13,408 nt of DNA from a virus (Duplodnaviria > Heunggongvirae > Uroviricota > Caudoviricetes): the IMG/VR virus record IMGVR_UViG_2698536458_000006, one strand, 5' to 3'. This document shows, one piece after another, positions 6,001 to 12,000 of this stretch (positions within the stretch are counted from its first letter, which is position 1; every line of letters begins with the position of its first letter). Position numbers: made by a program.

Positions 6001-9000
6001 CGCGCTCAGCGTGGACTGATGTTCAGACGCCCATGCAGGCGCACCGGATACGGCCAGGCAAATGGCTGCGGACAAAATGGCTGCACAAACTTTACGCATA
6101 ATTACCTCTCGCTTTTCTGCAATAAAAAAGGCGTCATTCCTGACGCCATTTATTGGGGTTATAAATATTTCAACGAATACTGATGCCGGAAGCCGCTTTT
6201 TTGGTCACAATCACCGTACAGTCGGTGATATTGCCTGCCCCCTGATTGCCTTTCTGGAAAATCTTAAACTCCAGAGTGACGCTACCACCACCACTAGGCA
6301 TATCAATAACTGCACTGTAACTACCGGGAATGGCACCTTTAGTTTCTCTGGATGCGATTAATACGCCGTTTTTGCGAACTTCAAAACCATAACCCGTGTA
6401 TCGCGTGCCTCCTGGGTTATTTCCGCTCCCCGGATCGTCATACGCTATACCGTTAAAAATAATGGGCGGAATAATAATCTGGCGGTCAAAGTTATGATCA
6501 TCGCTTATGGTGACTGTAACCGTCCCGTTTGGTGTTTCCGTGTTACCCCACGTACCAGCCTGTTTCGGAAATGATTTGGATACAGCTTTAACGAAGTCAC
6601 CTCTGACCTGAGTCGCCTCCAGCATGCCCTTAATCGTACAGTTTTCATTTACCGTGACATTGTTGAGCGTCCCGGCGTTCGCATTCACACTGCCACTGAT
6701 ATCCGCATTTTTAGCGGTCAGCTTTCCGTCCGGAGTCAGGGAAAATGCCGATGGATTTCCACCGCTGGTAATGGTGGGGGCCGTCAGGCGTTTCAGGAAC
6801 ACGTCGTTCATGAATATCTGATCGCCCTGACCAACAAACATCGGTTTTGTGTTGCCATTCGCAGGATTAACCATCGCAATCCTGTCCGCCGCCAGCAGCA
6901 CCTGACTCTGCATGCCGTCAGGGGTGTTCTCAATACCGGCACCAATACCCGCGATATAAAGGCGTCCGTCCTGCATCTGCTGCAGCTTCACAGCCCACAT
7001 GCTGTTCAGGTTATTATTTGTATCAACCTGAACCTTCTGTATCTGCTGAATTGCCGCACTCTGGTCTTCCAGTTTCTTATTGACGGTCTGCGTGATTTCA
7101 TTGCTGACATCCGTAATGGACGTCCTGATTTCAGCCAGGTCAGGCGCAAGCTGACCGTTATCAATCTGCGTCCACAGCTCCTGAGCCAGATGGGTTTTCC
7201 CTATCTCGCCTTTGAAAAAATCCAGATAACCGGATGCATCATCACTCGGCTGACCAACAGCCTCCACGAATGCCGATTTGCCAACGGTGTTCACACTGCG
7301 GATATAAAAGTAATAATCATGGCCCGGTTTGATATTGATACTGGCGGCTATCCAGTACAGCGCCGTGCCAAGATAGCGTGCTGTGGTTTCAACCTGCCTG
7401 ATATCCGCAATCCGCTTTTCCGAGAACCAGAACTCAAACTGTACCGTCGGATCATAAACCGCAAGATGCGGCGTGGCGGTTATCTGAAAATAGCCCGGCG
7501 TCAGCTCAATCCGCGACAGCGCTGCCGGTGCGGCAATCCGGAACGATACCGACGCCGGATCGCCCTGCTGCCCCCACGCATTTACTGCCCGGACTGTCAG
7601 CCTGTAGTTCCCCAGCGCCAGTTGTGTGAAGCGGTAAGTGGTTTCCGTCGTCCGGGCCGTNNNNNNNNNNNCTCTTTTGAGGCCGCCGCACCCCGTGCCG
7701 AGGTGGCAGCTTCTGACGCCTTCGTGGTCGCTGTGGATGCAGAAGTGGCTGNNNNNNNNNNNNNNNNNNNNNNNNNNNNNNNNNNNNNNNNNNNNNNNNN
7801 NNNNNNNNNNNNNNNNNNNNNNNNNNNNNNNNNNNNNNNNNNNNNNNNNNNNNNNTCTGCAGCAGCACTTTTTGCTGCTTCACGGGCCTTTGTCGATGCC
7901 GTTCCTGCGCTGGAAGACGCTGACTGAGCCGACGACGCGGCCTGTCCGGCTGACGTGCTGGCGGCACGTGCTGAGGCTGCAGCATCGGTTGCATGAGTTG
8001 CCGCCTCGCTGGCTGATTTTTTCGCGGCTGCCGTATTCTGTGCAACCGCGGAGGCGTTACGTGACACCTCTTCCACCATCTGCTCAAAGCGGCGCAGTGC
8101 CTCCGGTCGGACATCATCCTCCGTCATGGCACCGAGAAAATCATTCAGCGTACCTGGTCTGGAACCTTCATAGACGGTAATGGTCCCGGCATGTGAAGGC
8201 GGAAAACCTTCAACCAGCAGGGTGACGCTGTACTGACCATGCTCAACATCCATGCTGTAACGTCCGGCTTCATCCGGATTTTCAGAGGCCACCGTGTTCA
8301 CCACCATCGTGCTGCTGGTTCGTCTGGCCTTCAGCACAATGGTGCAGTTCTGTACTGGTTTTCCTGTGCCATCTTTAAGCACGCCAGAAATTTTTACTGT
8401 CATACTTTTCCACCAATAAAAAAAGCCCGCAGCAGTGACGCCACGGGCTTCAGGACAGTGTAACTTTACGTTTCCTCAAACGCAGTTCACCCCATAAGGT
8501 GGATGAACCTGCGTATCATAACAATATTTACAGAAGATAAATCGGCGTCTGTTGTCAGATACGGTATCCGATACCAACAATAAATGCATCCGTTCGCCAG
8601 TCACCACTACCGGAACCTTCATAAGCAAGGTCAATGGTCACGGATTCGGTCGGGTTAAACTGCACGCCAGCCCCCCACGCCAGAGACGTGTTGCTGTGGC
8701 GACCGTCATCACTTCCGGTCAGCACATCGTGCGTTTTCCCCTTGTTGTCAGTTACGCGGAGATAATCCCCGGAGAAAGTCGACACACGGCTGTAAGCCAC
8801 ACCCACCATCGCATACGCGCTGAACCATTCATTCACGCGTACAGACGGCCCCGCCATCACGCTGAACCAGCGGTTACGCACGGAATCTTCATGCCAGCGG
8901 GTATCGCTGTAACGGGTCAGCTGGCGATTCTTGTCTCCTGCATAGCTGAATGACGTCACCAGCCCCAGCGTATCCGTAAACTCATAACGGTATTTCACGT

Positions 9001-12000
9001 TAATCCCGTTCAGATTATCGCTGCCGGGAGCGTTCGTACGGGCATGAAGATACCCCGCGCTCAGTGTGGACTGATGTTCAGACGCCCATGCAGGCGCACC
9101 GGATACGGCCAGGCAAATGGCTGCGGACAAAATGGCTGCACAAACTTTACGCATAATTACCTCTCGCTTTTCTGCAATAAAAAAGGCGCCATTTCTGGCG
9201 CCCGTATATGGGTTATAAAATTCAGCTGATACTGATGCCTGCGGTGGCTTTCTTCATCACCACAACCAGCAAATCGCTGATACTTGCTGTGGGATACCAG
9301 TTATTCACCAGCCATGCTGACACCGAAAACTCCAGCGTCATGTGGCCGCGACCAGCTGGCATATCAATAACACCACTGTAAATCAGCGTATTATCCAGCG
9401 CGGTACGGTTATAAATTTCAGCACCGTTTTTCCGTACTATCAGGCGGCATGACGAATAAATATCGTTATTCTCCCGCTCATGTTTAGCGCCGCTGAATGC
9501 CACCGCCGGAATAACAATTTGCCTGTCAAAAGGCTGATCGTCATAAATCCTGACGGTAATGGTCCCTGATGGCCACCGCTCCGGTGCCCGGGAGTCCCGC
9601 GGAAAAGCCTTACCCACTGTTTTGACTATATCGCCTTCAATCTGGTTGGCTGACAGTTTCCCCTTAATCTGACAGTTCTCATTAATTGTGACATTGTTGA
9701 GCGTCCCGGCGTTCGCATTCACACTGCCACTGATATCTGCATTTTTAGCGGTCAGTTTTCCGTCCGGTGTCAGGGAAAATGCCGGAGGATTACCGCCGCT
9801 GGTAATGGTGGGAGCCGTCAGGCGTTTCAGGAACACGTCGTTCATGAATATCTGATCGCCCTGACCAACAAACATCGGCTTTGTGTTGCCATTCGCAGGA
9901 TTAATCATCGCAATCCTGTCTGCCGCCAGCAGCACCTGACTCTGCATTCCTGCTGGCGTATTCTCAATACCGGCACCGATACCCGCAATATAAAGGCGTC
10001 CGTCCTTCATCTGTTGCAGCTTCACAGCCCACATGCTGTTCAGATTATTATTTGTATCAACCTGAACCTTCTGTATCTGCTGGATTGCCGCACTCTGGTC
10101 TTTCAGTTTCTTATTGACAGTCTGCGTGATTTCATTGCTGACATCCGTAATGGACGTCCTGATTTCAGCCAGGTCAGGCGCAAGCTGACCGTTATCAATC
10201 TGCGTCCACAGCTCCTGAGCCAGATGTGTTTTCCCTATCTCTCCTTTGAAAAAATCCAGGTAACCTTCCGCATCATCGCTCGCCCGACCGACAGCCTCCA
10301 CGAATGCCGATTTGCCAACGGTGTTCACACTGCGAACGTAAAAATAATAATCATGGCCCGGTTTGATATTGATACTGGCGGCTATCCAGTACAGCGCCGT
10401 GCCAAGATAGCGTGCTGTGGTTTCAACCTGCCTGATATCCGCAATCCGCTTTTCCGAGAACCAGAACTCAAACTGTACCGTCGGGTCATAAACGGCAAGA
10501 TGCGGCGTTGCGGTTATCTGAAAATAGCCCGGCGTCAGCTCAATCCGCGACGGTGNNNNTTCTCAATACCGGCACCAATACCCGCGATATAAAGGCGTCC
10601 GTCCTGCATCTGCTGCAGCTTCACAGCCCACATGCTGTTCAGGTTATTATTTGTATCAACCTGAACCTTCTGTATCTGCTGAATTGCCGCACTCTGGTCT
10701 TCCAGTTTCTTATTGACGGTCTGCGTGATTTCATTGCTGACATCCGTAATGGACGTCCTGATTTCAGCCAGGTCAGGCGCAAGCTGACCGTTATCAATCT
10801 GCGTCCACAGCTCCTGAGCCAGATGGGTTTTCCCTATCTCGCCTTTGAAAAAATCCAGATAACCGGATGCATCATCACTCGGCTGACCAACAGCCTCCAC
10901 GAATGCCGATTTGCCAACGGTGTTCACACTGCGGATATAAAAGTAATAATCATGGCCCGGTTTGATATTGATACTGGCGGCTATCCAGTACAGCGCCGTG
11001 CCAAGATAGCGTGCTGTGGTTTCAACCTGCCTGATATCCGCAATCCGCTTTTCCGAGAACCAGAACTCAAACTGTACCGTCGGATCATAAACCGCAAGAT
11101 GCGGCGTGGCGGTTATCTGAAAATAGCCCGGCGTCAGCTCAATCCGCGACGGTGCTGCCGGTGCGGCAATCCGGAAGGTGGTGGTGGCAGGTTCACCCTG
11201 CTGGCCATAGCTGTTTATCGCCCGCACCGTCAGGGTGTATTCCCCGAGCGGCAGGCCGCTGAAACGGTGCTCCGTGTCTGCGGTGATGGCGGTGGTCACC
11301 AGTCTGGCATCCGTTCCCTTACCACTGGTCAGGCGCAGACTGAAGCGCACACCCTTCACCACCCGCGGCGTGTCCCATTTCGCCTGCGCCAGATACTGGC
11401 CGTCAGGTGCTGCACTGCCGGTGGGATGACGCTGTTCAGGGAACCTGACTGCGGCTCAAAGCGGGCACCGTTATCCACGATGGCTTCTTTTTCCAGTACG
11501 TGCTGCACCGCCGTGATGGCAAAGGTGCCGTCCGTGTTTTCCCGGACGGAGACACAGCGGAACAGGCGACGGCGCAGTGACGGCAGGGAGAGTCCCCACA
11601 CCCCGTATGTCTCCACACCATCAGGCAGGGTACTGACCTGTATCCGGTCCGGCGCGGGGTGTTCGGTGATGTCCACACTCACCGGCTTACCGCTGCCGTT
11701 AATCAGGTTCACCGTGGCGGCACCGGTCTCCGGAAGTGTCACTTCACGGTCCAGCGTCAGAGTGCGGGTGGCAGCATCAATGGACAGGACACGTCCGCCG
11801 GTCAGGGTCCCGGCATAGTCGTTATCACAGATTTCAATGATGTCACCGGGTGTGTGCCGCAGCCCCTGAGACCCGAGCGTGAAATCCACCGTCTGCGTTT
11901 CCAGCAGTTCGGTCTTTATCACCCACAGTCCGGCACGGTGGGCCTGACCGCGGCTGGTACAGCCGAACGCGTCCATCTTCAGCAGGTTGCGTCCGTAGCG

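Follow-up and report, generated by a model that had tools for sequence, protein, structure and literature searches.

The window, by which we mean the whole stretch of viral DNA analyzed (13,408 nucleotides), is very probably a short-read scaffold in which two paralogous host-range regions of lambdoid prophages (J, lom, stf and tfa) from one sample are interleaved. On comparison of its sequence with related loci, its seeming tandem array of host-range genes can almost certainly be put down to assembly and is not a real biological feature. The initial annotation had proposed a flattened assembly graph instead of a colinear locus, and comparative evidence bears this out, with the pieces re-sorting into two loci, here called A' and B' (Table 1), that tile gap-free contigs. 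Once reconstructed, A' and B' are each an unremarkable module of the kind carried by E. coli lambdoid prophages. The J, lom, stf and tfa gene calls were also right, Pfam searches and tblastn against a reference locus being in agreement with them. Where their limits differ from those in Table 1, the calls put the J C-terminus of the B segment at 10553-9237 and stf at 5524-950. The artefact had been correctly located at the J modules but drawn too narrowly, as the problem covers the whole window including stf.

Table 1. Features of the window, by locus (positions are those of the window)
Locus	Feature	Position	Strand	Remarks
A'	tfa, tail fibre assembly gene	369..950	-	Pfam Caudo_TAP, E 4.6e-44; 100% identical to gap-free L116
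A'	stf 3' part	950..3195	-	Pfam Phage_fiber_2, Collar
A'	stf 5' part	4629..5524	-	0 mismatches to L116 from 4629 to 7660
A'	lom, naturally truncated allele, 160 aa	5617..6099	-	Pfam Ail_Lom, profile 1-159 of 199; identical in L116
A'	J C-terminal 496 codons (tail tip / receptor-binding protein)	6170..7660	-	Pfam Ig_J, Ig_J_second, Phage_Tail_Tip, Ig_GpJ_C; cut by 11-N run
B'	stf middle part, P2-type-tail-fibre-like	3218..4628	-	Misplaced inside A' stf; 2 mismatches in 1,411 bp against L129 4201-5611
B'	stf 80-bp island	7672..7751	-	100% identical to L127, L128 and L129, where it is 80 bp from the next piece
B'	stf 5' end	7856..8403	-	Pfam phage_tail_N, E 1.2e-70; ~99% identical to L127-L129
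B'	lom, full length, 199 aa	8555..9154	-	Pfam Ail_Lom, profile 1-198 of 199
B'	J C-terminus	9222..10555	-	Pfam Ig_J_second, Phage_Tail_Tip, Ig_GpJ_C
B'	J N-terminal part, pseudogene	11109..13272	-	Pfam FNIII-A_GpJ, Phage-tail_3
	Redundant A-type copy of J block 6927-7475	10560..11108	-	At end of J N-terminal contig; identical to A
	22-N scaffold gap	3196-3217		Inside stf; joins B' stf middle to A' stf, stepping back in gene coordinates
	11-N scaffold gap	7661-7671		Mid-J of A' joined to internal stf of B'
	104-N gap	7752-7855		Colinear within B' stf
	4-N scaffold gap	10556-10559		595-bp backward step in J
	52-bp exact repeat	3144-3195 = 4629-4680		Crossover point X2 between two stf alleles; first contig ends here
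	46-bp exact repeat	10510-10555 = 11109-11154		First 42 bp also = 7476-7517; crossover point X1

Two loci recovered from the pieces

Locus A' would consist of 83-3195 joined directly to 4681-7660, with tfa, an stf of 1,029 aa, a shortened lom and the C-terminal part of J. The same sequence stands in the gap-free IMG/VR contig L116 (554-6646) as a colinear, uninterrupted stretch of 6,093 bp with 0 mismatches, in which 554-3666 corresponds to window 83-3195, again with 0 mismatches, and 3667 onward to window 4681 onward. Judged from this contig, the natural upstream continuation of the A' stf 3' part is 4681, not 3218. When the misplaced block is removed and 950-3195 is joined to 4681-5524, an intact 1,029-aa stf ORF is restored (the reference stf has 1,008 aa). 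The block itself (3218-4628) is about 10% divergent from L116 where the two can be aligned (4047-4628), and 3218-4046 has no L116 counterpart. At the other end of A', mid-J sequence meets internal stf across the 11-N run, as the initial annotation had observed; the last 35 bp of the A' J piece are followed by further J sequence in all of 127 natural occurrences, and never by stf.

In locus B', 13272-11155 would run straight on into 10555-7856; some 80 bp would follow, then 7751-7672, about 158 bp that are missing from the window, and 4628-3218. The locus would contain J as a pseudogene, lom, and a P2-fibre-like stf of which the first two-thirds are present. Its pieces (3218-4628, 7672-7751, 7856-10555 and 11155-13408) tile the gap-free contigs L127, L128 and L129 colinearly at about 99-100% identity. 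The island 7672-7751 is found at L129 5770-5849 with 0 mismatches and 7856-10555 at L129 5930-8630 (98.8%), while in L127 the latter piece occupies 568-3266 and is followed directly, at 3267-5520, by 11155-13408 with 1 mismatch in 2,254 bp. The natural upstream continuation of the B' J C-terminus, which ends at 10555, is by this alignment 11155. The B' stf middle has 92.9% amino-acid identity to residues 199-522 of the P2-like fibre in L126; the continuation of 3218 that is present in L129 and L126 (the fibre C-terminus and its own tfa) is absent from the window.

The J N-terminal part as called runs from 13272 to 10562 and includes the redundant A-type tail. This part of J carries an in-frame TGA at codon 68 (13069-13071) and a 22-bp deletion near 11399. 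Sequencing errors as the source of the stop codon and the frameshift were rejected, since both are found in independent contigs: the deletion is common to 5 IMG/VR contigs, and the stop codon is also present in L127.

Joins at N-runs and short exact repeats

Relative to the single-copy ST131 locus L001, three of the four N-runs coincide with backward steps in gene order and the fourth (104 N) is colinear. The 22-N, 11-N and 4-N runs each sit between redundant pieces, and every junction between J-lom-stf modules falls on an N-run. That the modules are joined at N-runs, as the initial annotation stated, holds for the 11-N and 4-N joins. One crossover (about 4628-4646) lies inside an N-free contig; this switch between the A' and B' stf alleles is the only change of register without an N. 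The N-runs 3196-3217 and 7752-7855 had gone unreported, the latter inside what had been called a stf 5' fragment.

A terminal exact-match scan found that three segment ends are exact repeats common to another segment (46, 52 and 591 bp), which agrees with the earlier suggestion of contigs ending at branch nodes of the graph. In stf, 2562-3195 repeats 4047-4680 (634 bp, about 90% identity) and stops precisely at the 22-N run. In J, three segments overlap: A (ending at 7660), B (ending at 10555) and C (starting at 10560). The reported identity of 6927-7517 and 10560-11150 is exact over its 591 bp (0 mismatches), with the first differences at 7518/11151; as far as 7543/11176 (617 bp in all) A and C differ at 2 positions, and beyond that their identity is roughly 60%. 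Also as claimed, B and C overlap at the 4-N run rather than abut (9961-10555 against 10560-11154, 95.6% over 595 bp), and B ends near the divergence of A and C, position 10555 corresponding to A 7521, 4 bp past their first difference. The same 595-bp overlap of B and C matches is found within one J in complete genomes such as THO-006 and ECAMP047. The J block is duplicated, as had been noted, but truly redundant sequence is limited to 549 bp (10560-11108).

Each switch of locus coincides with an N-run or with a short exact repeat that the two loci have in common (in stf 52 bp, in J 42-46 bp). We infer that the paths of the assembler crossed at these repeats, and that the scaffolder then put the alternative branches end to end with size-estimated N-runs between them. 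If the N-runs were instead masked real bases of the stated length, the sequence would be colinear and hidden at four spots, and it is true that a few stretches in one public collection are described as N-masked and that the frame is kept across the 22 N. However, where the window has 104 N, its relatives L127, L128 and L129, with flanks that are 100% identical, have 80 bp, so the N lengths are estimates. Furthermore, 4 or 11 bases cannot bridge mid-J to internal stf in frame, nor J residue 911 back to residue 715, and the register jumps exactly at N boundaries. Masking was rejected by the 104 N against 80 bp and by the frame analysis, and we regard it as the least probable of the explanations considered.

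Under the preferred reading of two interleaved loci, B' sequence gives way to A' sequence between 4628 and 4646, with no N, and mismatches to L129 are dense from 4646 onward. No IMG/VR contig and no JGI metagenome contig contained the exact crossover sequence (the unique 4590-4700 stretch), and the best complete genome across it reached only 97.2%. When 10560-13408 is compared with L127, 29 of the 30 mismatches fall within 10560-11108, and L127 agrees with B, at 3 mismatches, and not with this copy, at 29. This stretch of J is naturally very mosaic: the contig L130 joins C-type upstream sequence to partly A-like SNPs, with 13 differences from the window over 10858-11016. Because such a natural mosaic of C-type and A-like J exists, the sequence of the 10560-11108 tail could represent a real third J allele rather than a wrong extension.

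Gene order and copy number in other genomes

Alternatively, the order as written could be correct: the host-range cassette would have been duplicated, in tandem or nested, by illegitimate recombination between two (resident) prophages or by insertion of one tail region into another, with the N-runs as small unresolved stretches. Tail-fibre genes are notoriously mosaic, the window exists as written in some deposited assembly, and the 1,524-codon stf frame is open across the 22 N, a point against an artefact that would be a 1-in-3 coincidence if the artefact model holds. Yet the J reading frame would shift at the 4 N (frames -1 and -3), both J and stf would be truncated mid-domain, and no continuous sequence crosses the junctions between J-lom-stf modules. 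Each change of register falls on an N-run or a short exact repeat, the 104-N run differs from the true 80-bp distance, and the pieces re-sort onto gap-free contigs (A' at 100%, B' at 98.8-100% per piece).

Other genomes also argue against a real duplication. Among 5,426 complete E. coli genomes, none has the 11-N or the 22-N adjacency; the screen covered these two joins, the halves of the 4-N join lying close together in a canonical single J too. The 11-N junction pattern likewise had no match in the collections of genome and viral contigs scanned, although a pattern N does match an N in a record in a local test; the source record is either absent from these collections or missed by the scan. 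The best matches listed among complete and phage genomes have a single copy of the region, spanning 7.6-8.9 kb except in one record that has an IS21-like insertion (11.5 kb). No near-identical complete genome was found (best individual-segment matches 94-97.6%), and the near-identical relatives of the window's segments are IMG/VR draft contigs. Over the 124 related loci fetched, doubled J blocks occur only in N-containing scaffolds, with at least two copies of the 591-bp block in 5 of 9 loci with N and 0 of 115 without (Fisher p = 5.6e-7). In all 9 N-holding IMG/VR loci an N marks the precise start or end of a repeat, and some of these loci have further N positions where no repeat begins or ends. 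With this evidence on both sides, we consider a real duplication highly improbable.

The same artefact might also have combined A' and B' from two strains rather than from one chromosome, if the sample was mixed or contaminated or was a metagenome bin. The relatives of A' and B' are mostly on separate contigs of different genomes, as this would predict. Against it, the number of J-lom-stf places per complete E. coli genome has a median of 3 and reaches 17, making two such loci in one genome the default, and a single-isolate genome (L120) has an A-type J (99.75%) together with a B-type J-lom (99.6%). Two strains are thus an unlikely source, and we believe that A' and B' were probably both in one genome.

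Significance and relation to known systems

If the scaffold order were true, the source strain would have a nested or tandem array of two divergent J-lom-stf cassettes, and with it a standing reservoir of receptor-binding modules within a single prophage. As it is, its biological significance is low and its practical value is that of a warning. Annotation as written would give a 1,524-aa side tail fibre, a partial J duplication, a second lom and a 'tandem host-range cassette', all of them false. The same artefact recurs in N-holding IMG/VR loci, so surveys of tail-fibre diversity or copy number should break draft scaffolds at N-runs, and redundancy adjoining gaps in draft prophage scaffolds should be treated as suspect.

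A published hallmark of false duplication is that assembly gaps separate the copies on a scaffold (PMC9516828), and homologous prophage content in E. coli is poorly handled by short reads (PMC10925052). Like the false duplications described in the former study, the copies in the window lie on one scaffold, are separated by gaps, are similar but not identical (85-96%) and have contig ends at shared repeats, with gap-free assemblies of their relatives holding one copy. They differ in that the 'alleles' would be bacterial paralogous prophage regions instead of diploid haplotypes, and in that one crossover (4628-4646) is inside a gap-free contig.

Both reconstructed loci have the canonical order and domains of the lambda-type J-lom-stf-tfa module. 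The Pfam matches in the window include J tip-attachment domains, Ail/Lom, a prophage tail fibre N-terminus with fibre repeats, and Caudo_TAP, and the window's genes are colinear with those of the annotated ST131 prophage locus L001. Whereas finished phages and genomes have this module once, over about 7.6-8.9 kb, the window shows it about 1.5 times in 13 kb; the J pseudogene of B', the truncated lom of A' and the P2-fibre-like middle and C-terminus of the B' stf are further departures from the lambda type. Phages with multiple receptor-binding proteins have several tailspike or fibre genes in a row, each complete and distinct, in continuous sequence. The window has a superficial likeness to them in showing more than one host-range gene set in series, but unlike theirs its 'extra' copies are cut mid-domain at N-runs and would belong to another locus.

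N-runs, repeats and gene content

We found that the window is interrupted by four N-runs; the two named in the initial annotation are present, but its count was too low. The gene calls for J (tail tip), lom, stf (side tail fibre) and tfa (fibre assembly) are borne out by Pfam, which assigns Caudo_TAP to tfa, Ail_Lom to two lom copies, phage_tail_N, Phage_fiber_2 and Collar to stf, and FNIII-A_GpJ, Phage-tail_3, Ig_J, Ig_J_second, Phage_Tail_Tip and Ig_GpJ_C to J. Three segments bear J, here called A (within 3218-7660), B and C (see table). As first read from the sequence, 6927-7517 in A equals 10560-11150 in C over 591 bp with 0 mismatches; past this block the two copies still match with 2 mismatches up to 7543/11176, beyond which J identity is about 60%. 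The overlap of J across the 4-N run and the position of B's end also held: B 9961-10555 and 10560-11154 are 95.6% identical when aligned, so that 595 bp of J occur on both sides of the run, and B ends 4 bp beyond the first difference between A and C. A 634-bp repeat within stf (2562-3195 versus 4047-4680, about 90% identical), which ends exactly at the 22-N boundary, had been overlooked, as had the 22-N run itself, the 104-N run with its 80-bp island, and two defects in the N-terminal part of J, a 22-bp deletion and an in-frame TGA.

Pieces and N-runs of the window, with their counterparts in L129 (a gap-free IMG/VR contig) and L001 (an annotated single-copy ST131 prophage locus)
Feature	Window	L129	Match to L129	L001	Remark
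First piece	1-3195			3001-6659	
22-N run	3196-3217				inside stf
Piece with segment A	3218-7660			6026-9670	3218-4046 without match in L001
B' part of this piece	3218-4628	4201-5611	2 mismatches/1,411 bp		
11-N run	7661-7671				
Island	7672-7751	5770-5849	0 mismatches	6766-6845	80 bp
104-N run	7752-7855				leaves the island
Segment B	7856-10555	5930-8630	98.8%		
Segment B, part aligned to L001	7859-10555			6932-9648	
4-N run	10556-10559				
Segment C	10560-13408			9054-11924	
J N-terminal part	11155 on	from 8631			directly adjoining in L129

Gap-free relatives of the pieces

Near-identical gap-free relatives of the pieces are IMG/VR contigs, proviruses of draft isolate genomes, and the pieces re-sort into two paralogous J-lom-stf loci, A' and B', that tile such contigs. 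For A', window 83-3195 aligns to contig L116 free of mismatches, and L116 runs on unbroken from window 3195 into 4681-7660, again with 0 mismatches; 83-3195 plus 4681-7660 therefore corresponds to L116 554-6646 (6,093 bp). Once its two parts are rejoined, the A' stf is an intact ORF of 1,029 aa, comparable to the 1,008-aa Stf of L001. The lom of A (5617-6099, minus strand) encodes only 160 aa, and its match to the Ail_Lom profile (199 positions) stops at 159; because the gap-free L116 has the identical sequence, this is a natural truncated allele. At window 82/83, downstream of tfa, 148 bp present in L116 (406-553) are missing between flanks that are 100% identical. Both edges of this difference come after a small hairpin and an A-run, and the 148 bp were either truly deleted or lost through a further assembly shortcut.

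The B' pieces follow L129 (see table), and from 11155 to 13408 there is 1 mismatch in 2,254 bp to the gap-free contig L127. The distance from the island to the next piece is exactly 80 bp in L127, L128 and L129 versus 104 N in the window; N counts are therefore gap-size estimates, which contradicts a reading of the N-runs as masked bases. Past window 3218, the B' stf as seen in L129 goes on for another 160 aa of C-terminus and is accompanied by a tfa of its own; together these are 98.5% identical in DNA to the matching part of the P2-like prophage fibre region L126, and a stf C-terminus and tfa of this type are absent from the window. From its middle to its C-terminus, the B' stf is about 93-98% identical to the P2-like fibre and tfa (window 3218-4186; L126 4521-6566; L129 3129-4400), which marks a fibre module exchanged between lambdoid and P2-like prophages.

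On the minus strand, the N-terminal part of the B' J has the in-frame TGA at codon 68 (13069-13071), and the 22-bp deletion lies near 11399 between two CCGTCAG repeats; this J is a pseudogene. L127 has the stop codon too, and the deletion recurs in five IMG/VR contigs; the B' J is therefore a conserved defective prophage allele and no sequencing error. A terminator-like element, a strong GC-rich hairpin (-32 kcal/mol, z = -7 versus shuffles) with a U-run after it, sits just upstream of J on the minus strand (13372-13408), and the equivalent spot in L001 (11888-11926) also gives an inverted-repeat match.

Crossover points and written junctions

Within 3218-7660 the lineage switches between 4628, the last mismatch to L116, and 4646, from which mismatches to L129 are dense; the switch falls at the edge of a 52-bp repeat whose two exact copies are 4629-4680 and, closing the first contig, 3144-3195. 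The switch within 10560-13408 lies at 11109, as 29 of the 30 mismatches to L127 fall in 10560-11108, the copy identical to A, and over this block L127 has 3 mismatches to B versus 29 to the A-type copy. At its end B has 46 bp (10510-10555) that recur exactly at 11109-11154, and the first 42 bp of these recur in A as well, at 7476-7517. With the switch positions mapped, every change between A' and B' therefore coincides with an N-run or a short exact repeat common to both loci. Switches at such places would be expected if, as we infer, a k-mer graph assembly was followed by scaffolding with read pairs. The 549-bp tail 10560-11108 could be a real third J allele instead of a wrong extension, and a further contig, L130, displays natural mosaicism at the same J spot; the verdict on the scaffold is unchanged whichever origin the tail has.

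In the related loci, 127 copies of the 35 bp that lead into the 11-N run were counted, each with further J next and none with stf. Among 5,426 complete E. coli genomes, none holds both halves of this junction together, and none holds both halves of the 22-N junction together. The exact 4628-4646 crossover sequence is present in 0 IMG/VR contigs and 0 JGI metagenome contigs. Across it the best complete genome reaches 97.2% identity, and the IMG/VR relatives of its two sides reach 100% (A', L116) and 99.9% (B', L129). Among 124 related loci, at least two copies of the 591-bp J block were found in 5 of 9 loci with N versus 0 of 115 without (Fisher p = 5.6e-7). All nine N-holding loci, from IMG/VR (L016, L018, L024, L063, L064, L075, L086, L099 and L120), contain single-N joins and have a direct repeat of J, lom or stf with a boundary exactly at an N (for example, L063 8053-10454 versus 10456-12857, 98.8%); some of them also have N positions without a repeat. 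Mis-scaffolding of this kind appears to be widespread in draft E. coli genomes. Published work treats a gap between two copies on one scaffold as a hallmark of false duplication (PMC9516828), and homologous prophage content in E. coli is poorly handled by short reads (PMC10925052).

The flattened assembly graph proposed in the initial annotation is thus supported by the re-sorting of the pieces into two loci and by the absence of the written 11-N and 22-N junctions from complete genomes. A genuine tandem or nested arrangement would need every rearrangement junction to be unsequenced by chance, a chance re-sorting into two loci that match contigs of other genomes (A' exactly, B' at 98.8-100%), and both J and stf to be interrupted within a domain, J also out of frame across the 4 N; we consider it very improbable. 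Sequence comparison instead supports reading the window as two ordinary paralogous prophage tail regions interleaved. The same artefact might stem from mixed strains and not from two prophages in one genome, but this source is less likely because complete genomes hold a median of three such regions and a single isolate scaffold, L120, carries both lineages. In practice, recognizing interleaved loci keeps a spurious 1,524-aa fibre and a spurious duplication of the host-range cassette out of the annotation.

Gene order against single-copy loci

The order of genes in L001, which served as the reference, is tfa, macro-domain gene, stf, lom and J. Relative to L001, three of the four N-runs are backward steps in gene order, and the 104-N run is a colinear gap. 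Mapping onto L001 placed no macro-domain gene in the window; in L001 this gene (3572-4474) lies between stf and tfa, and a reverse-transcriptase and SLATT pair (967-2866) lies just past tfa, all of them probably defence cargo. Among the best matches listed for complete E. coli genomes, the window's 13 kb falls within spans of about 8.9 kb that hold the module once, and one listed record with an 11.5-kb span has an IS21-like insertion. In complete genomes, THO-006 and ECAMP047 among them, the matches of segments B and C overlap by 595 bp in a single J gene. Finished lambdoid phages likewise carry the module once, in a region that spans 7.6-8.7 kb.
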